From a virus (lineage: Duplodnaviria > Heunggongvirae > Uroviricota > Caudoviricetes): 37,261 nucleotides of DNA. Under the pieces are notes generated by a model. The model searched no databases. It was given only the letters and a program-made list of their open reading frames with translations, and was not told the origin of the DNA. The stretch's first letter is position 1; every line of letters begins with the position of its first letter. The DNA lies in IMG/VR virus record IMGVR_UViG_2711768064_000001, positions 1-37,261 of that record; one strand, given 5' to 3'. Below are positions 2,028 through 37,261 of this stretch, one piece after another. The translations under genes and the position numbers were made by a program.

Positions 2028-2554
2028 TTGCGTAACTCCGATAACTCGTTAAAACGTTCCATAAACATCCCGTAGGCCTGGCCCGGTGCCAGTGGAATCA
2101 CGTTGAACATCTCTGTTGCCGGGATGCCTTCCAGTACAGGCCAGAAAGAGCCATCATCAAGCCCGAGATCGCGGCGTTCGGTTGCCAGCATGATGAGATC
2201 GGCATATTTCACAGGCGTGCTCATAACCGGGGGTAACCCGTATTTTTCACGGATTACGGCGTCTATTTTTTCTTCCATCCGTTTATAGTCAGGAAGAAGG
2301 CGTTTCAGTGGAGCCGGGATGTCCTGGCAATACGCTTCTGTTGCATCATGCATTAACGCTTCAAAAGCAAATTCCTGCGGTACCAGCTGGCTGCAAAGCA
2401 CCGCATGTTGGGCGACGCTGTAGAAGTGTGAAAGATGTCCTGCAAAGCGACAGATATTTGAAAGGGAAACCGCGATATCGTTAATAACGATGTCGTCTTT
2501 ATTTATCCTGTCATAATAAAAATGCTTCCCGGAAAAAGTTTTAATAAATGACAT
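2018..2554 (-). CDS. HD-domain phosphohydrolase (YfbR-like 5'-deoxynucleotidase family)
   Basis: His/Asp-rich metal-binding-type segment (HLSHFYSVAQHAV...MHDATEAY); start moved to internal ATG (MSFIKTF) preceded by GGAG. Confidence 0.7.
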   Translation of the reverse strand: MSFIKTFSGKHFYYDRINKDDIVINDIAVSLSNICRFAGHLSHFYSVAQHAVLCSQLVPQEFAFEALMHDATEAYCQDIPAPLKRLLPDYKRMEEKIDAVIREKYGLPPVMSTPVKYADLIMLATERRDLGLDDGSFWPVLEGIPATEMFNVIPLAPGQAYGMFMERFNELSELRKCA

Positions 2555-3097
2555 TTTGTTCTCCACGTATATGCGCTGCACCGCGCTGAATTCGGGTAAA
2601 AGGAAGCCCTCACCGTCCGGCGATTATTGAGTCAATTACATTTCCATAAATGCCCCCGTAGGGGCGGTTAGTTTCTCCACAAAACAGAGAAGAACACCTG
2701 TGGTGGCAGCCGCCCGGATGGATTGGGTTATGAGCCCGTCGTCCGATGATGCTCTTCTCTGTTTTGTAAAAAGGACGGTACCAGCCGGAAGCAAGGGTAC
2801 AAGCTGGTACCGCCAAGACAACACACAGCATAAAGTTGTGGTGCCGGGTGCCTCCCGGTGCCTGGCGAAGGTTGTACACCAGACGGGTGGGTATCCACAG
2901 AAGGTCGACTGTCAGCCTCAACCTTAACCCGCGTGCGCTGAGCCGCATTCACCACAACGCTAAGGATTCTCTCTGGTTGAAAATACTTAGCTGTTATGTG
3001 CCTGCTTTTAGCCACATCAGGCGAGGTGGACCTGGTTATTCCCCAACAACAAGGATTCGGTATAATCTGGATATCCCAACAACAGGTAGGAAGGAAA

Positions 3098-10341: not shown

Positions 10342-10415
10342 TTTATGCTCTGAAGTGTATACCCATGATGAGACTATATTTGTATCATGGGTATTCATAT
10401 ATACAGGAGGGTAAT

Positions 10416-11264
10416 ATGTCAAATAGGATATTTGATGCACTATACCGTGAGAAAATAGATATTTTTAAAAATTCTTTTTCCGCAACTTCAACTGAAGTTT
10501 TTTATGATCCTGAAAACAATCGTCTTATTCATGCTGGTGAATATGGAATATATCGTGAGTCGGTAGTAAGGGATTTTTTGAACTTTATAGTTCCTCAGCG
10601 ACTTGCTATATCTAATGGTTTTTTAATGTCCGCGATGGATGACATTAGCACGCAGTGTGATGTTGTTATTTTTGATTCTAAAATGACACCACTTTTTCAA
10701 GGTGGAGATAAACATAGGTTTTTCCCAATTGAATCTGTTTACTGCATTGGTGAGGTTAAGTCAAATTTATCTCGCGCTGCTTTTCGAGACGCCATTAACA
10801 AACTGGCGAAAAATAAAGCAATCGCCGAGAGAATAAAAAACCCTTCATTAAGTTTTAACTCTAGCAGTTTTAACTTTGATCCGGAAAACAACCCTTTTCA
10901 TGTTTATTCTAGCATATTGATCTGTAAGAAGCTTGATTTTGATATAAGCAATATAGAAAATGAACTAGATAATCTTTACTCTGATGAAATACAATTTAGG
11001 CATAGGCATAACCTAATCCTTAGTATCGAAGATGGGCTTCTTGCCTATTCAGCCCCGGATGGAGTGAAACTTCCATTCCCGATGCTTCGCCAGCAAAACT
11101 TTAAAAGTTGCTTCTTGACTCCAAAAGATGATGAATATTTCCACATGAAGTTTTTCGGTACATTTATGTTTATGTTAACCTCTGGTAAAATTTCCTTATA
11201 TCCTGAGTTCTCCGATTATATTTCACCAGTTCAAAATGGTGGAAGTGCTAGGGTTCAACTATGA
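10416..11264 (+). CDS. AT-rich moron protein with PD-(D/E)xK-like motif; candidate nuclease / defence protein
   Basis: 282 aa; ATG 10416 with AGGAGGG RBS; motif CDVVIFD...x26...ESVYCIGEVKS; flanked by hairpin upstream and terminator downstream. Confidence 0.65.
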   Translation: MSNRIFDALYREKIDIFKNSFSATSTEVFYDPENNRLIHAGEYGIYRESVVRDFLNFIVPQRLAISNGFLMSAMDDISTQCDVVIFDSKMTPLFQGGDKHRFFPIESVYCIGEVKSNLSRAAFRDAINKLAKNKAIAERIKNPSLSFNSSSFNFDPENNPFHVYSSILICKKLDFDISNIENELDNLYSDEIQFRHRHNLILSIEDGLLAYSAPDGVKLPFPMLRQQNFKSCFLTPKDDEYFHMKFFGTFMFMLTSGKISLYPEFSDYISPVQNGGSARVQL

Positions 11265-13401: not shown

Positions 13402-13508
13402 ATTGAAAATGAGAAATGAAAGTAGTAAATATGTGCCAAGCTGTGATGAAACCAGCAATGAAGCACGTTCATTAATCCGCATTCTCTGAAAAAGAGAAAG
13501 AATTATAA

Positions 13509-13535
13509 GCCTCGGTTTAATACCGGGGCTTTTTT
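13509..13535 (+). terminator. Rho-independent terminator after lysis cassette
   Basis: Stem GCCTCGG/CCGGGGC (one G-U), loop TTTAATA, T-run. Confidence 0.55.
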
Positions 13536-13686: not shown

Positions 13687-14241
13687 ATGAACTACCCAAC
13701 AGTTGTTAACGGCATCGATTTCCGAGACCTGATTTTTGTAGCAAACAACGATCCGGTTACCGATTCGTTTATGGTGGCGAAAGCATTCGGTAAGCTGTCG
13801 AAAAACGTAGTTCGCGATATTGAACGGACCATAGACGCTTGCCCACCAGAGTTTGATACAAAGCTCAACTTTGAGCTTTGCTATAGAAACAATGAGTTAC
13901 AGAATGGAAAACCGCAGAAATTCTACCGACTCCGCAAGGATGGATTGATGCTTCTTGTCATGTCTTACACCAAGAAAGAAGCCATGCGGATCAAAATTGC
14001 TTACATCAATGCTTTCAATTGGATGTACGCGATGCTTCAAGTTGGCTGGCGTCAGTTTGAAGAAGAACGAAATGCAGTAATGCTGGAGTTCATGAAGGAG
14101 AAGGATGTGGCCAGTATGTCAGGCCGTCTTCTGAATCGTTGGGGTAGGGTGAAGAAGCCCGTCCTACTTGCGAAGATTGAGAGACTCGAAAAGCAAGGAC
14201 AGATCCCACTTCTCGGATTAACCAAAGCACTCACCGAATAA
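13687..14241 (+). CDS. Rha family phage regulatory protein
   Basis: N-terminal DSFMVAKAFGK...NVVRDIER matches Rha (Phage_pRha) signature. Confidence 0.7.
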   Translation: MNYPTVVNGIDFRDLIFVANNDPVTDSFMVAKAFGKLSKNVVRDIERTIDACPPEFDTKLNFELCYRNNELQNGKPQKFYRLRKDGLMLLVMSYTKKEAMRIKIAYINAFNWMYAMLQVGWRQFEEERNAVMLEFMKEKDVASMSGRLLNRWGRVKKPVLLAKIERLEKQGQIPLLGLTKALTE

Positions 14242-14370
14242 AGGTTTCCATGAGCAGCCTTTTTTGTACCCATTACAAAGCTCATCTGCGGGTGGGCTTG
14301 ATAATGGGTATTGAATGTAAAAATACGTCAGACATAATGATACATCCTTATTGCTGACGGAAAATTGTAA

Positions 14371-14622
14371 ATGTCTGATAACTTTGATTTCGATGATGAA
14401 CGTAAACAGCTTGAGCACTTGAGTGATGAAGAGTTGGAGCAGGTAGCTAGGGATTACGATCTTCTTCCTGAAGGGGTATCTCTTGAAGATAAGTCTGTAG
14501 AATTTGTTGATGGCCTTATAGGTGAGATTATAGAGGCTAAGGCTTACCATGATTCACAAGATGCAGAATGGAACGAACAACAAGATATCATGGAAGAGCA
14601 AAGGCGTGATGCAGACTACTGA
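14371..14622 (+). CDS. Highly acidic small protein (83 aa); DNA-mimic / anti-restriction candidate
   Basis: 28 of 83 residues are D/E by manual count; AT-rich; own terminator. Confidence 0.5.
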   Translation: MSDNFDFDDERKQLEHLSDEELEQVARDYDLLPEGVSLEDKSVEFVDGLIGEIIEAKAYHDSQDAEWNEQQDIMEEQRRDADY

Positions 14623-14641
14623 TTACGCATAATGTTAAACA

Positions 14642-14663
14642 AGGTCGCCAATGCGGCCTTTTT
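14642..14663 (+). terminator. Rho-independent terminator
   Basis: Stem AGGTCGC/GCGGCCT, loop CAAT, T-run. Confidence 0.6.
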
Positions 14664-14820
14664 CGACCGCCGTGAACCATCCGGTTATTGCGCGGCATGA
14701 TGTGTTGCAACTTGACGACTAGCGGCATTACAGCAGGCATTCACTGAGTGTCTGAGATAATGCTGTGATATCCTCAAACATGACGTTTCTTACTTAAAAA
14801 CATAAAGTTGAGGTTTTTAA

Positions 14821-15207
14821 ATGGATTTAGTAACAGTTACTACAAAAGAGCAACTAAAGAAAGCGAAAGAAGATAAGGTAGATGTCATCGTTGTAGAAGG
14901 CGAGCTTGCTGAAAAGCTGAAGCGAAGTAAGAAAGTTGCTATTGCAGCTGCAGGGGTTAGCGGTGTCGCTCTGACAGGTTTGATTGCTGCAATTGCTGCT
15001 GCACCTGCTACAGGTGGCACCTCATTTTTGCTCTATGCTGGTGTCGCAGGAACATCTGCTGCGACCTTTACTGGAATTGAAATTGCCTCAATAATCCTGG
15101 CAGGTTCAATTGGGATTACTCTTCTCGTGGGGATTTTTAAAGATTATGAAGAAATTGAAGCGTCTACATCTGGTGGAATAAAATTAAAACGAAAACAAAA
15201 AGATTAG
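14821..15207 (+). CDS. Small membrane protein with Gly/Ala-rich (glycine-zipper-like) hydrophobic domain
   Basis: 128 aa; soluble charged N-terminus then AIAAAGVSGVALTGLIAAIAAAPATGG...GIEIASIILAGSIGITLLVGIF. Confidence 0.5.
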   Translation: MDLVTVTTKEQLKKAKEDKVDVIVVEGELAEKLKRSKKVAIAAAGVSGVALTGLIAAIAAAPATGGTSFLLYAGVAGTSAATFTGIEIASIILAGSIGITLLVGIFKDYEEIEASTSGGIKLKRKQKD

Positions 15208-15243
15208 AATGAAATAGGCGTTTGCCTGACACTTTATCCCTAA

Positions 15244-15271
15244 GCCACTGGCATCCGCTGGTGGCTTTTTT
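15244..15271 (+). terminator. Rho-independent terminator
   Basis: Stem GCCAC/GTGGC with extended pairing, followed by TTTTTT. Confidence 0.5.
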
Positions 15272-18179: not shown

Positions 18180-19420
18180 TGTTCTTTTCGGGATTATTTC
18201 AACGAAAAAGTGACGCACCGGTGACCACGCCAGCAGAGCTGGCGGAGGCTATCGGGCTGTCCTACGACACCTATACCGGAAAGCAGATCAGCAGTCAGCG
18301 GGCCATGCGACTGACGGCGGTTTTTTCCTGCGTCAGAGTGCTGGCAGAGTCGGTCGGGATGTTGCCCTGCAATCTGTATCACCTGAACGGCAGCCTGAAG
18401 CAGAGAGCCACCGGCGAACGTCTGCATAAACTGATCTCCACGCATCCCAATGGCTATATGACGCCGCAGGAGTTCTGGGAGCTGGTGGTCACCTGTCTGT
18501 GCCTGCGGGGAAACTTTTACGCCTACAAAGTGAAAGCATTTGGCGAAGTGGCTGAACTGCTGCCCGTCGATCCCGGCTGTGTGGTACCGAAGCTTAACAG
18601 TAGCTGGGAGCCGATCTATCAGGTCACATTCCCGGATGGCTCCACGGATGTACTGAGCCAGGAGGATATCTGGCATGTGCGCACGCTGACGCTGGACGGA
18701 CTGGTGGGGCTGAATCCCATCGCCTATGCCCGCGAGGCAATATCGCTGGCAGCTGCGACCGAAGAGCACGGGGCCAGACTGTTCAGCAATGGCGCGGTGA
18801 CGTCGGGGGTGTTGCGTACAGAGCAGACGCTGTCAGATCAGGCTTATGAGCGCCTGAAGAAAGATTTTGAGGAGCGTCACACCGGGCTTGGCAATGCTCA
18901 CCGCCCGATGATCCTTGAGATGGGGCTGGACTGGAAGTCGATGGCGCTGAACGCCGAGGACAGCCAGTTCCTGGAAACCCGCAAGTTTCAGCTTGAAGAA
19001 ATCTGTCGTCTGTTCCGGGTGCCGTTGCACATGGTGCAGAACACCGATCGCGCCACCTTCAACAATATCGAAGAGCTGGGGCTGGGATTTATCAACTATT
19101 CACTGGTGCCGTATCTGACCCGCATCGAACAGCGGATCAACACCGGACTGGTACGAAAAAGTAAGCAGGGCGTTTATTACGCCAAATTTAACGCCGGGGC
19201 GTTACTGCGCGGGGATATGAAGTCCCGTTTTGAAGCCTACGCCACCGGGATCAACTGGGGAATTTACTCTCCCAATGACTGCCGCGACCTGGAAGATATG
19301 AATCCGCGTCCCGGTGGTGATGTCTATCTCACACCGATGAACATGACCACGAAACCCTCCGATGGCAGTAAAGCCGGTAAGCAGAAGGATAACGCCAATG
19401 CAGACGAAACAACGTCTTGA
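18179..19420 (+). CDS. Portal protein (HK97 family)
   Basis: 413 aa following terminase; HK97-type portal gene order. Confidence 0.85.
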   Translation: MFFSGLFQRKSDAPVTTPAELAEAIGLSYDTYTGKQISSQRAMRLTAVFSCVRVLAESVGMLPCNLYHLNGSLKQRATGERLHKLISTHPNGYMTPQEFWELVVTCLCLRGNFYAYKVKAFGEVAELLPVDPGCVVPKLNSSWEPIYQVTFPDGSTDVLSQEDIWHVRTLTLDGLVGLNPIAYAREAISLAAATEEHGARLFSNGAVTSGVLRTEQTLSDQAYERLKKDFEERHTGLGNAHRPMILEMGLDWKSMALNAEDSQFLETRKFQLEEICRLFRVPLHMVQNTDRATFNNIEELGLGFINYSLVPYLTRIEQRINTGLVRKSKQGVYYAKFNAGALLRGDMKSRFEAYATGINWGIYSPNDCRDLEDMNPRPGGDVYLTPMNMTTKPSDGSKAGKQKDNANADETTS

Positions 19421-20048
19421 TGTACCGCTGAGTCTGAAATCTGTCAGTGACTCCGGTGAGTTTGAAGGGTATGGCTCCGTCTTTGGTGTAAAGGACAGCC
19501 ACGATGATGTGGTGATGTCCGGGGCATTTGCTGCTTCCCTGCGGGCGTGGAGTGACAGAAAAGCGTTACCTGCGCTGCTCTGGCAGCACCGCATGGATGA
19601 ACCCATCGGTGTTTACACCGAAATGAAGGAAGACGATGTCGGGCTTTACGTCAGGGGACGGTTGCTTATTGATGATGATCCCCTCGCAAAACGCGCACAT
19701 GCACACATGAAGGCCGGTTCGTTAACCGGCCTTTCTATTGGGTACGTCCTGAAAGACTGGGAATACGACCGGAGCAAAGAAGCCTTTCTGCTGAAAGAAA
19801 TCGACCTCTGGGAAGTCAGCCTGGTGACGTTCCCGTCTAACGACGAGGCGCGGATCAGCGACGTCAAGAACGCACTGGCCCGCGGGGAAATCCCCGAACA
19901 GAAAAAAATCGAAAGAGTCCTGCGTGATGTCGGACTCTCCCGTACCCAGGCCAAAGCATTCATGGCCGGGGGCTATGGCGCACTGTCCCTGCGCGACGCT
20001 GAGGATGTGGGCTCTGCACTGAATGCACTGAAAAATCTGAACTTCTAA
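19398..20048 (+). CDS. Prohead maturation protease (HK97 family)
   Basis: Motif GYGSVFGVKDSHDDVV typical of HK97 prohead proteases; start at ATG 19398. Confidence 0.8.
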   Translation: MQTKQRLDVPLSLKSVSDSGEFEGYGSVFGVKDSHDDVVMSGAFAASLRAWSDRKALPALLWQHRMDEPIGVYTEMKEDDVGLYVRGRLLIDDDPLAKRAHAHMKAGSLTGLSIGYVLKDWEYDRSKEAFLLKEIDLWEVSLVTFPSNDEARISDVKNALARGEIPEQKKIERVLRDVGLSRTQAKAFMAGGYGALSLRDAEDVGSALNALKNLNF

Positions 20049-33044: not shown

Positions 33045-33791
33045 ATGCATCGTATAGACACGAAAACCGCGCAGAAGGATAAGTTCGGCGCGGGTAAGAA
33101 CGGTTTTACCCGTGGTAACCCCCAGACCGGCACACCTGCCACCGATCTGGATGATGACTACTTTGACATGTTGCAGGAAGAGCTTTGTGGCGTGGTGGAG
33201 GCATCCGGTGCCAGCCTGGAGAAGGGGCGAAACGACCAGTTGCTTACCGCGCTTCGTGCTCTGCTGTTAAGCCGCAAGAATCCGTTTGGTGATATCAAAT
33301 CGGATGGCACGGTGAAAACGGCTCTCGAAAACCTTGGTTTGGGAGAAGGTGCTCCAGCTATTGGCGTTCCGTTCTTCTGGCCCTCCGCGGCAATGCCAAA
33401 TACTGTAATCGACAGCTGGTCCGGTATGGTGTTTTTGAAGTTCAACGGGGCGAAATTTTCTGCCTCTAATTACCCTGTGCTGGCGAAAGTGTTTCCTTCG
33501 CTGGTATTACCTGAAGCCCGCGGTGATTTCATTCGTATCTGGGATGACGGGCGAGGTGCAGATGGTGGTCGCGAATTATTAAGCTGGCAGGAAGCTACAA
33601 ACTTTTCTCAGTTTGCCGGGAATATAGGCGGAGGTGCGGGACACGCAATTAACTTTCATGATGGCATCGCCGGAAATCAGCCAGGATTTTCACGATTTAA
33701 TTTCACCAGTAACTCTGTGGGTGATGGTGTGAGTTTTGTTGCTGTCAGACCGCGAAATATTACATTTAACTTTCTGGTGAGGGCTAAATAA
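33045..33791 (+). CDS. Tail fibre protein (constant N-terminal part plus variable C-terminal part in current orientation)
   Basis: Crossover site inside the gene at 33322-33347; followed by tail fibre assembly gene. Confidence 0.75.
33322..33347. other. gix/hix-like inversion crossover site (left)
   Basis: TTCTCGAAAACC-TT-GGTTTGGGAGAA; inverted copy at 35066-35091. Confidence 0.5.
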
Positions 33792-34384
33792 TGAAACCTG
33801 TTTTTGATGAAAATGGGCTGGCTACAGTGCCGGGCGATATGCGTTGTTTTTATTATGATGCTGAAACATCTGAGTATACGGGCTGGTCTGATGAATATAT
33901 TAATACTGGCGTAAGTATGCCCGCCTGTTCCACTGGTATTGACCCTGGCGAAAACATTCCGGGAAGAGTGGCAGTATTTACAGGTAAGGGATGGAGCCAT
34001 GAAGAAGACCATCGCAATGAGACTGTTTACTCAATCGAAAATGGCGCAGCTGTTACAGTGGATTATATCGGTGCCATCAAAGACGGTTATGTCACGATTT
34101 CACCGTTAACGCCATACGATAAATGGGATGGTGAGAAATGGGTGACAGACACTGAGGCACAACACAGTGCCGCAGTAGACGCGGCAGAAGCACAGCGCCA
34201 GTCACTGATTGATGCAGCAATGGCTTCCATTAGTCTGATTCAGCTGAAATTACAGGCCGGACGGAAACTGACTCAGGCAGAAACAACCCGACTTAACGCC
34301 GTGCTGGATTACATTGACGCGGTGACGGCAACAGATACCAGCACCGCGCCGGATGTCATCTGGCCTGAACTGCCGGAGGCGTAG
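33791..34384 (+). CDS. Tail fibre assembly protein
   Basis: 197 aa after tail fibre; conserved C-terminal Tfa-like region. Confidence 0.75.
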   Translation: MKPVFDENGLATVPGDMRCFYYDAETSEYTGWSDEYINTGVSMPACSTGIDPGENIPGRVAVFTGKGWSHEEDHRNETVYSIENGAAVTVDYIGAIKDGYVTISPLTPYDKWDGEKWVTDTEAQHSAAVDAAEAQRQSLIDAAMASISLIQLKLQAGRKLTQAETTRLNAVLDYIDAVTATDTSTAPDVIWPELPEA

Positions 34385-35371: not shown

Positions 35372-37261
35372 TTAATCGTGTTTTGGCCATACTTTCAATG
35401 CAATTTCCCCCAACTTTTTACCCCGCTCCAGGATTTCATCCTCATCCCATTTATCCTTAACTATAAGTGGAATGTTCAGTCGTAGATTGGTGTGGACGAT
35501 GAGAGCATCACGTTTTTTCAGAAATACAGCATTCTGAACAGAACGGTTTACGCTAAGGTTAAGCAAAGTTAGATTTCCCAAAGTAGCTATCGCTTGTTGC
35601 CGTTTCCATACCAGTAGCTGTTCAGGGGTAAGATCGGTTCCAGACAGAACAATTTGGTTCAATACCGTAGCATCTGAATTTGTCACCATACGACCATTTT
35701 CGAGAGGCCAACAGGAATACCAACTTTGAGGCATAAGATGATCGATATCGAGATTAGAAAGATTTGGAACATCAGGCTTTTCTGTCTTCACTTGGCGACA
35801 AAGTTCTCTTTCAAGTTCCGTTAACATTGAGCGCATTTTCGGTGCGTCGAGCCTGCCAGGATAAAGTGGAGCATTGATGCAAGCGTTGAGAAATTCTGAG
35901 TCACCAGGCCAACGTGAGGCTTCGCCATTTAAGTTATTGAGGATATTACGTAACTCAACACTGGAAATTTCCGTTTTAGCCAAGTGCCGCAATACATTCA
36001 TAAATACATTGTTGTAATTCTTTGGCGTCAGGCCACATACGGCTCTTCGTACTACGTAGGAGACAAGATCATTATACATGGCTGCTTTCTCATCATCAGC
36101 GATGTTAGCTATCGAAATGAACAAAGCAAGCGGATAAAGTGTCGTCACATCATAGTCTGCGATGCGATATCCAAAGTGTGAGATGGGGGTTGTGCCAAAA
36201 CCATCAACCAGTTCTTTATATTGTAATGCATATTGTTTGAGACGCTTTACTTGCAGATCTGCTCGTTGTGAAGACAAGTCCTTACTTACATAATCACGAT
36301 ACTCATTGTAAAGGCGAGACAGATCAATTTCACGCTGCCTTTCTGATTGCAATGTCGCATGTACTAGCCACTCCATGCGTGGTTTATTAATACGTCCACG
36401 GCGTTGCTTTTCCGACCAGTATTTATCTTCAAAGCTCTTCCACTCATTTTCATATAATTCAATAGCATTAATATTTTCATGCTCAGCGCACATAAAGATA
36501 TAGTTGCGAATAAGATCCGTGGCATGAAGTTCCGCCCCTCGCCCATTTAATGTTTCAAAAATTATTTGGGCATCATCTTCAGCTTCGAGAAATATGCTTA
36601 CCAGTTTCAGATCTGTTAAGACAGCCTCAATTAGAGCTACAGCATTTTCTTGTGGTGAGTGGTTTTCTATTTTAATCCATTTTATAAAGGCTTCAGTAAA
36701 AAAACATAATGCTTCTAGTGATGGCGGGTGATTAAAATGCTTACGCAACGTACCATGCTGCGTGAAACTATCAGAGAATACGTCCCGGAGATCATCAATA
36801 TTTTCAACATTAAAACTTTGAATAAAATGAGTTTGATCCCGAAAAGTTGGCCATAGTTTGAAGCGTTCTACTTCTTTATTTCGCATTGTGTCTTCGTTTG
36901 AGTTTTTCAGGCAAGGCGAAATGAGAGCCTCTAAGCTGAAAAGATCCGTAGCACGTAATGCTAATCGGATGGATGCCAGAACATATTGAAGAGTGGCCAA
37001 TCGTTGCTGACCATCAATAATATGTATGGAATCTACACCTAATAATCCTTTTTTTGATTGAGGTTCCAGTACAACCGCACCAAGGAAATGGGGAGTTGGT
37101 TTTGTACCCGAGAGCCGGGATTGTGCTTTCTCTAGGATATCCTCCAGTAGAGCTGACCATTGGTCTTGCTGAGTCCATACATAGGCACGTTGATAGAATG
37201 GAACACAGTATTGTCGGCGGTCTTGAAAAAGTTGTTGGACAGTTAGCGTCTCGGATTTCAT
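35372..37261 (-). CDS. GmrSD-like type IV restriction protein (DUF262 N-terminal, DUF1524 C-terminal)
   Basis: N-terminal CVPFYQRAYVW...IIDGQQRL motif (DUF262); C-terminal DIDHLMPQSW motif (DUF1524/HNH-like); AT-rich; start codon at window edge. Confidence 0.8.
   Translation of the reverse strand: MKSETLTVQQLFQDRRQYCVPFYQRAYVWTQQDQWSALLEDILEKAQSRLSGTKPTPHFLGAVVLEPQSKKGLLGVDSIHIIDGQQRLATLQYVLASIRLALRATDLFSLEALISPCLKNSNEDTMRNKEVERFKLWPTFRDQTHFIQSFNVENIDDLRDVFSDSFTQHGTLRKHFNHPPSLEALCFFTEAFIKWIKIENHSPQENAVALIEAVLTDLKLVSIFLEAEDDAQIIFETLNGRGAELHATDLIRNYIFMCAEHENINAIELYENEWKSFEDKYWSEKQRRGRINKPRMEWLVHATLQSERQREIDLSRLYNEYRDYVSKDLSSQRADLQVKRLKQYALQYKELVDGFGTTPISHFGYRIADYDVTTLYPLALFISIANIADDEKAAMYNDLVSYVVRRAVCGLTPKNYNNVFMNVLRHLAKTEISSVELRNILNNLNGEASRWPGDSEFLNACINAPLYPGRLDAPKMRSMLTELERELCRQVKTEKPDVPNLSNLDIDHLMPQSWYSCWPLENGRMVTNSDATVLNQIVLSGTDLTPEQLLVWKRQQAIATLGNLTLLNLSVNRSVQNAVFLKKRDALIVHTNLRLNIPLIVKDKWDEDEILERGKKLGEIALKVWPKHD

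Follow-up and report, generated by a model that had tools for sequence, protein, structure and literature searches.

A 37,261-nucleotide stretch of DNA from a virus of the Caudoviricetes (IMG/VR record IMGVR_UViG_2711768064_000001, positions 1 to 37,261; the whole stretch is called the window below) carries a gene for an extremely acidic protein of 83 amino acids that appears to be the cargo of a moron. In this case the moron would be a mobile cassette made of a predicted promoter, a leader, an open reading frame (ORF), and a predicted terminator, which has moved horizontally among temperate phages of the Enterobacterales and lands in non-essential gaps beside terminase genes. We assign this status because the traits that define morons were found, namely insertion between otherwise adjacent genes, a terminator of its own (identified in silico), and foreign base composition, together with a predicted promoter. 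We put the chance at about one in three that the product of the cassette is a phage-serving decoy inhibitor that blocks a nucleic-acid-binding target, probably a host defense system or a nuclease. The features of the cassette in the window were as follows.

14271 to 14663, plus strand: whole mobile cassette (left junction, promoter, leader, ORF, and terminator), a blastn block of 393 bp.
14266 to 14306, plus strand: junction sequence common to cassette-less HK022-like phages (41 nucleotides, 97.6% identity).
14311 to 14338, plus strand: sigma-70-like promoter predicted by consensus scan, with -35 element TTGAAT at 14311 to 14316, a 16-nucleotide spacer, and -10 element CATAAT at 14333 to 14338.
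14356 to 14364, plus strand: conserved, Shine-Dalgarno-like leader GACGGAAAA, with [CT]GGAA[AG] at a fixed distance from the start codon.
14371 to 14622, plus strand: coding sequence of the acidic protein, with an ATG start, 83 amino acids, stop codon included.
14641 to 14663, plus strand: intrinsic terminator predicted by folding, a hairpin with an 8-bp stem (AAGGTCGC-CAAT-GCGGCCTT) followed by T5.

The ends of the cassette were evident from blastn comparisons of the window with three other loci (L006, L048, and L049; loci are given by such L numbers), each of which aligned as a single block with the same ends at 14271 and 14663 and with 83 to 87% identity. The flanks of the block were unrelated or rearranged in these loci, and the HNH gene of L048 was located upstream of the cassette, not downstream. 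The same unit was also seen between the genes for the terminase large subunit (TerL) and the portal protein (alignment A3). The sequence at 14266 to 14306 matched HK022, HK446, mEp235, and mEpX2, and in HK022 it falls in the gap that separates gp73 from gp74, the terminal HNH gene. This sequence marks the insertion junction of the cassette and may be a recombination hotspot or the 3′ end of the upstream unit.

The promoter was predicted with a consensus scan whose sites were, overall, no more frequent than in shuffled sequence; the pattern TTGAA[TA]-N16-CATAAT was located 30 to 33 nucleotides 5′ of the ATG in 12 of 18 distinct upstream sequences, drawn from four genomic contexts, and was retained even where protein identity to the window copy is down to about 35%. 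When IMG/VR was scanned for this pattern, it was restricted to contigs carrying the acidic gene. The leader motif [CT]GGAA[AG] was present in most distinct upstream sequences, including those of the Atlantibacter group, and differed in L016 and L019/L058. An inverted repeat (CGTCAG at 14327 to 14332 and CTGACG at 14354 to 14359) flanks the -10 element and the leader. Its conservation among relatives is only partial, and it may be either an operator or fortuitous.

On the other side of the gene, relatives provided 19 distinct downstream sequences, each of which contained the predicted terminator hairpin, and 97.7% of cells were paired. Two pairs of the stem were changed on both sides (G-C to A-U and G-C to C-G), which is compensatory, and the loops varied among relatives (CAAT, TAAG, TCAG, TTCG, AAAT, and others). 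A simple terminator scan had missed the hairpin of the window because the T run is short in this copy. No RNA family of the Rfam type was found at a credible score in the cassette region.

Four types of genomic context were evident, distinguished by the neighboring terminase genes; TerS denotes the terminase small subunit.

Context (a): lysis genes, optional Rha gene, cassette, small ORF, HNH gene, P27-type TerS, TerL (window, L001, L006 to L008, L047).
Context (b): DUF2280-type TerS, Terminase_6C TerL, cassette, Phage_portal_3 portal (L002 to L005, L012 to L015, L052 to L056).
Context (c): as (b), with a Terminase_3 TerL (L009 to L011, L019 to L022, L051, L057, L058).
Context (d): cassette 0.75 to 2 kb upstream of a lambda GpA-type TerL (L048 to L050), or, in Yersinia (L016 to L018), directly after the lysis genes.

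The cassette was thus found beside four unrelated terminase types (P27/HK97-like, Terminase_6C, Terminase_3, and lambda GpA-like) and, in all four module types, always within about 2 kb of the TerS and TerL genes. In the window, it is preceded by genes for a holin, a GH108 endolysin, and Rz/Rz1-like spanins, a terminator (13507 to 13531), and a Rha-family gene, and is followed by a 128-residue ORF (phrog_25580), a terminator (15242 to 15267), and the HNH, P27-type TerS, TerL, and portal genes. The linear map of HK022 stops about 340 bp past its HNH gene, and synteny with this phage would place the window copy near the right cohesive end, at a distance of roughly 1 kb.

One of these loci showed traces of decay. 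In L001 (Escherichia coli EC_J_9, 18460 to 20000), an IS3 element adjoins the cassette on its 5′ side, in the place of the lysis and Rha genes of the window, and the annotation shows neither lysis genes nor Rha from a KilA-N remnant to the cassette. Further along the same locus (33465 to 34162), an IS1 element adjoins the tape-measure gene and interrupts the next ORF. The acidic gene of this decaying prophage is still intact.

The slots occupied by the cassette are non-essential, judging from phages that lack it. Among phages with portals 61 to 93% identical to the query portal, the slot between TerL and portal contained an unrelated 138-residue membrane protein in CobraSix, an unrelated 65-residue ORF in PSA04, and nothing in Kp4864-1. 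A survey of 17 related prophages from reference genomes (portals 56 to 96% identical to the query portal) gave the following contents for this slot.

Empty, with TerL abutting portal: 6 of 17.
No called ORF: 1 of 17.
Cys-rich ORFs of 51 to 91 residues: 3 of 17.
'MAIFK' ORF of 65 to 67 residues: 5 of 17.
Membrane protein: 1 of 17.
A different acidic ORF of 53 residues: 1 of 17.

The TerL-portal gap of prophages with Phage_portal_3 (L026 to L044, at about 2500 to 3000) was likewise variable, with at least five alternative small ORFs or nothing. A conserved 65-residue 'MAIFK...' protein occurs in this slot in Bordetella, Achromobacter, and Pseudomonas phages, and a 139-residue membrane protein is another alternative; the gap is a possible hotspot for accessory genes.

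The constant presence of the gene within about 2 kb of TerS and TerL in four module types would suit an accessory of virion assembly or packaging, such as an acidic scaffold or core-like protein or a cofactor of terminase or portal. An acidic composition and a helical structure are typical of scaffolding and core proteins, and copies of the Atlantibacter subgroup, in which the promoter is lacking, would be transcribed only with the late operon. We nevertheless regard such a role as unlikely, since close sister phages have no such gene or have unrelated ORFs in the slot, since a specific assembly partner is hard to reconcile with terminases of four unrelated families and with two or more unrelated portal or head types, and since a late structural gene needs no private promoter or terminator. 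The stricter form of this idea, that of a core head gene, was rejected after inspection of CobraSix, Kp4864-1, PSA04, and the 17 prophages with related portals.

A partnership with a neighboring gene was considered as well. The HNH gene is less than 1 kb away in the window, in L006 to L008, and in L048, and immunity (Im) proteins are acidic and about 85 residues long, so the product could be an immunity or inhibitor protein for the adjacent HNH endonuclease in the style of colicin DNases and their Im proteins. This is very improbable, because most members have no nearby HNH gene (the TerL-portal contexts L002, L003, L005, L009, L012 to L015, L019 to L022, and L051 to L058), L004 has just an unrelated HNH_3-type ORF downstream, the order of cassette and HNH gene is not fixed, and HK022 keeps its HNH gene without the cassette. 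The downstream 128-residue protein, Rha, and HNH were all rejected as partners, as none co-travels with the cassette, and therefore the 83-residue product presumably acts alone.

The composition of the protein is the basis for a proposed function in nucleic-acid mimicry. It contains 14 Asp and 14 Glu among 83 residues, compared to 3 Lys and 4 Arg; its computed isoelectric point is close to 4.05 and its net charge is near -21. Its acidic fraction of 0.337 makes it the most acidic of the 49 plausible gene products of the window (mean 0.121 ± 0.045 standard deviation [SD]), 4.8 SD out and well apart from the runner-up at 0.187. The gene has a GC content of 41.3%, versus 50.7% for the window and 52 to 59% for the flanking lysis and terminase genes, and genes of relatives range from 37 to 45%. 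The protein is predicted to be cytoplasmic because it contains neither a signal peptide nor a membrane or hydrophobic segment; its hydrophobic core is small.

Much of this had been proposed in an earlier note made from the letters of the window. Its count of 28 acidic residues in 83 with few basic ones (7 Lys plus Arg) was exact, and its description of the gene as AT-rich agrees with the GC contents above. The accessory island that it placed between the lysis and packaging modules is confirmed by the gene order, the slot being variable and the cassette mobile, and the terminator that it gave to the gene corresponds to the hairpin and T5 run at 14641 to 14663, of which 14663 is the last T and which all 19 downstream sequences of relatives share.

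Homologs of the protein are few and uniform in their setting. A word-indexed search of 5.8 billion proteins gave 22 relatives with 73 to 99% identity. An exhaustive hidden Markov model (HMM) search of 1.84 billion representatives returned six proteins, all from the acidic-protein family, which added four divergent members; there were no fusions and no distant named relatives in this search. After a profile search the family totaled 32 clusters. Every member is unnamed, and lengths range from 80 to 92 residues save for three truncated copies (P0021, P0022, and P0025). The family occurred only in prophages and temperate-phage contigs, and the hosts, where known, were all Enterobacterales (Escherichia, Lelliottia, Kluyvera, Citrobacter, Salmonella, Pseudescherichia, Atlantibacter, and Yersinia). 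The gene is present in ten of the 5426 complete E. coli genomes, where its product is annotated as a hypothetical protein. No copy was found by tblastn in a collection of sequenced phages (two queries) or in a plasmid collection (one query); the low-complexity filter of tblastn could cut sensitivity for an acidic protein, and a DNA megablast of the phage collection was likewise negative.

The acidic ORF is a true gene under purifying selection and not a chance ORF, because pairwise ratios of nonsynonymous to synonymous substitution rates (dN/dS) among family members were 0.07 to 0.37 where dS was unsaturated. An antisense ORF (14218 to 14550) was rejected, as its open frame is not kept in relatives. 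The net charge was between -12 and -23 throughout the family, at identities of 31 to 99%, and D8 was the sole invariant acidic position. The other positions that were invariant down to 31% identity are the core residues L14, A26, L49, I53, and A58, and Q13, L22, L31, S37, and Q71 were near-invariant. Because this net charge is retained while only D8 is invariant among the acidic residues, bulk charge is conserved in the family while the positions of the charges drift.

Structure models were built with AlphaFold2 (AF2) in two runs with different alignments, and both gave the same topology: helices at residues 7 to 15 and 19 to 28, an extended loop at 29 to 42, and a helix at 43 to 80/81. The models rest on shallow alignments of 17 to 21 sequences and are of moderate confidence, with predicted local distance difference test (pLDDT) values of 80 to 89 for residues 11 to 60 and 50 to 61 for the tail. 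The C-terminal segment keeps the motif E-Q-x-x-[I/H/F]-[I/F/Y]-E-Q-x-[R/K], often with NDRFSD at its end, and the fact that a segment of low confidence still carries a conserved motif suggests a specific contact instead of a featureless tail. Motifs resembling beta-clamp-binding and single-stranded DNA-binding protein (SSB) tail sequences were noted by eye at the C-terminus and dropped, as their residues are not conserved in the family.

Structural searches with the AF2 models gave nothing significant, and Ocr, ArdA, and other solved mimics were not among the matches. The best compact matches, also not significant, were the SAP domain of DEK, the SAP domain of the exonuclease 3′hExo, the N-terminal domain of Rho, and a phage 'SAP domain' protein in BFVD, while a match to the LEM domain of emerin was weak (45 to 46 residues, root-mean-square deviation of 2.0 to 2.5 Å, 20 to 22% identity). 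The possible likeness to LEM, SAP, and HeH domains, of which these domains of emerin, DEK, and Rho are examples, lies in the predicted topology of about residues 7 to 60, where an extended loop connects two helices. The sequence pattern L-x2-L-S-x2-E-L-x3-A ... S-x-E ... L-I-x2-I-I-x2-A fits this helix-extended-loop-helix motif, and the core may tentatively be called LEM/SAP-like on the basis of the models.

Family searches did not provide a name for the protein. No Pfam family, including the SAP, LEM, HeH, and Rho_N profiles, matched at E ≤ 1, NCBIfam gave no match, and PADLOC gave none at E ≤ 1 for the window protein, P0023, or P0026. In PHROGs, the sole match was a weak one to the unannotated phrog_26028 (E = 0.006), and sequence searches of the PDB with profiles A1 and A4 gave chance matches or none. 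AcrIE9 and GiPD474 were considered as relatives and proved unrelated on checking, and nothing on the family was found in literature on acidic mimics of prophages and on helix-extension-helix phage proteins. The protein is outside every named family; its likeness to DNA mimics is compositional only, and its likeness to LEM/SAP domains is one of weak topology only.

The conserved charge with drifting charge positions is most simply read as the mark of an electrostatic decoy for a basic nucleic-acid-binding surface, in the manner of Ocr. In such a mechanism, the sigma-70-type promoter would be read by host RNA polymerase independently of the late cascade of the phage, which would allow expression in the lysogen and also at once on DNA entry into a new cell, and the terminator would insulate the portal or the HNH and terminase genes from the cassette transcript. 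In lambda, the right cohesive end enters the cell first, and a location about 1 kb from this end would favor very early expression of the window copy; contexts (b) and (c), which are of the headful type, fall outside this argument. The protein would act alone as a stoichiometric decoy, its folded helix-extended-loop-helix core (about residues 7 to 60) presenting a polyanionic surface and, together with the acidic C-terminal helix, occupying and blocking the basic nucleic-acid-binding surface of the target.

By analogy with anti-CRISPR loci, the beneficiary would most likely be the phage, through inhibition of a host defense or nuclease. In Mu-like Pseudomonas phages, acr genes with a promoter of their own are inserted in the head operon, and several Acr products, for example AcrIF2, are acidic mimics. 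The cassette resembles these loci in encoding a small, acidic, cytoplasmic protein, in being a promoter-equipped insertion in a structural or packaging block, and in its patchy occurrence among syntenic phages. It differs in that no aca-type regulator gene co-travels and that no Acr homology was found through Pfam, PHROGs, or the PDB. The RecBCD inhibitors T7 gp5.9 and lambda Gam are also small, acidic, and largely helical. The protein described here shares these properties of size, charge, and helicity, and its long helix could imitate nucleic acid, but it has no sequence similarity to either inhibitor, and they are early genes.

Several observations weigh against a decoy inhibitor that serves the phage. 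The Atlantibacter subgroup (L012 to L015 and L053 to L056) has no promoter, and because of this its copies must, as far as the sequences indicate, depend on late transcription. No similarity to a known DNA-mimic, anti-restriction, anti-CRISPR, or defense family was found in Pfam, NCBIfam, PHROGs, PADLOC, the PDB, or structure searches. The mean hydropathy of the protein (0.378 versus a boundary of 0.504) falls in the 'natively unfolded' region of a charge-hydropathy comparison, for which reason the chain may need a partner or counter-ions to fold. Finally, the rarity of the family (10 of 5426 E. coli genomes) and its confinement to temperate phages suit a moron of benefit to the lysogen equally well.

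Such a lysogen-benefit function is possible and would rely on the same architecture and chemistry. In this case, the target of titration would be a nucleoid or regulatory protein of the host, such as H-NS, HU, or RNA polymerase; alternatively, the protein would exclude superinfecting phages by blocking a DNA-binding protein of theirs. The layout of promoter and terminator is that of a classic lysogenic-conversion moron, the gene is confined to prophages and temperate-phage contigs, the prophage in the window bears other cargo of host benefit (a GmrSD-type enzyme and a NucC-like nuclease, described below), and the gene persists in decayed prophages (L001 with IS3 and IS1, and the truncated L014). 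The rarity of the gene in E. coli and the existence of the truncated copies P0021, P0022, and P0025 weigh against this function, and characterized exclusion morons are mostly membrane proteins.

The narrower suggestion of the earlier note was that the protein is a candidate DNA mimic of the Ocr/ArdA type, inhibiting restriction or other DNA-binding defense proteins; in its specific form, such a mimic would block type I restriction-modification enzymes. The part of this suggestion that stood is a cytoplasmic polyanion with conserved charge and a composition as acidic as that of Ocr or more so, as 28 acidic to 7 basic residues in 83 compares with 34 to 6 in 116 for Ocr (T7 gp0.3), and in both cases charge is conserved more than residue position. 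The extreme acidic bias, the predicted promoter, and, where the context is of the cos type, the proximity to the right DNA end would all agree with anti-restriction. What did not stand is any tie to restriction-modification or similarity to Ocr or ArdA. The note itself had claimed no sequence similarity to these, and correctly so, given no Pfam match at E ≤ 1 and no profile match in the PDB. As to the DNA-mimic-like structure that it proposed to look for, the predicted AF2 fold resembles no solved mimic, and homology to an unrelated, characterized acidic protein, which it had named as a counter-indication, was not found in family, profile, or PDB searches either.

Other properties also separate the protein from Ocr (PF08684) and ArdA (PF07275), to which it has no similarity in sequence or fold. 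It is much smaller, and its gene lies in late-gene territory of temperate prophages, in contrast to the early regions of virulent phages or the leading regions of plasmids. The family was not found in the phage and plasmid collections, the usual home of anti-restriction genes, and its predicted core is of the LEM/SAP-type helix-extended-loop-helix kind instead of a known mimic fold. We consider inhibition of type I enzymes improbable. The decoy inhibitor of about one chance in three can also be put in a more specific form, that of a novel inhibitor class in which a LEM/SAP-like scaffold has been turned into a polyanionic decoy and is carried near the first-entering DNA end by a 393-bp cassette that moves between unrelated packaging modules. 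From there it would disarm a host defense ahead of the expression of other phage genes, the candidates being restriction, CRISPR, a RecBCD-type nuclease, and a terminase/portal sensor. This full version is only tentatively put forward and is rather doubtful. The remaining probability falls to some other function.

As a genetic element, the cassette most resembles the lambdoid morons (as defined in HK97 and HK022, and including lambda bor, lambda lom, and HK97 gene 15). Like these, it is an insertion between neighbors that directly adjoin each other in related phages; it has a terminator of its own and, by prediction, its own promoter, its base composition is deviant, and it lies among the late genes of a temperate phage. 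Here, however, the cargo is a soluble, extremely acidic mini-protein and not a membrane or surface protein, and the same cassette is found in four different packaging-module backgrounds.

Should the protein act against defenses or in exclusion, it would represent a new fold family among the few known protein mimics of nucleic acids and would be a compact, portable inhibitor of only 83 residues. If it is without phenotype, it simply joins the other small hypothetical genes of prophages. Small acidic ORFs with hypothetical products are frequent in phages, and this one holds no mechanistic surprise. The features that rise above this background are a well-delimited and demonstrably mobile cassette and a conservation of charge in a divergent family that gives a cheap and concrete hypothesis. 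With a 393-bp unit in four packaging-module backgrounds and at least eight genera, the cassette is an unusually clean case of moron movement, and it would be a convenient model of how morons move and of whether promoters carried by prophages become active when DNA enters a cell.

Other genes of the window may also be accessory. On the minus strand, a gene that runs off the end of the window (35372 to 37261), at the tail-fiber end of the prophage, encodes a full-length GmrSD-type type IV (modification-dependent) restriction enzyme, with matches to Pfam GmrSD_N and GmrSD_C and to PADLOC mREase_IV over 628 residues, and it is likely defense cargo. Between the Q antiterminator and holin genes, a plus-strand gene (10365 to 11264) encodes a 299-residue protein with DUF6602, a NucC-like nuclease of the PD-(D/E)xK type. 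The GC content of this locus is about 35 to 39%, far under that of its flanks, and the corresponding gap of L006 instead holds a pair of Peptidase_M78 and DUF4411 genes; the nuclease gene is possibly another moron, perhaps a defense effector.

In the spacer 3′ of the cassette, a segment of 63 nucleotides (14701 to 14763) is about 95% identical to a hypothetical-protein locus that is unrelated to the acidic gene. All ten of the partial-match genomes listed for it are E. coli Nissle 1917 and its derivatives, and 126 E. coli genomes match only part of the query. The ORF that follows (14821 to 15207, plus strand; phrog_25580) encodes a 128-residue protein with a long hydrophobic center rich in Ala and Gly and is followed by the strong terminator at 15242 to 15267. 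It is a separate unit of the island that does not co-travel with the acidic gene, and L006 to L008 have a 65-residue ORF at this position.
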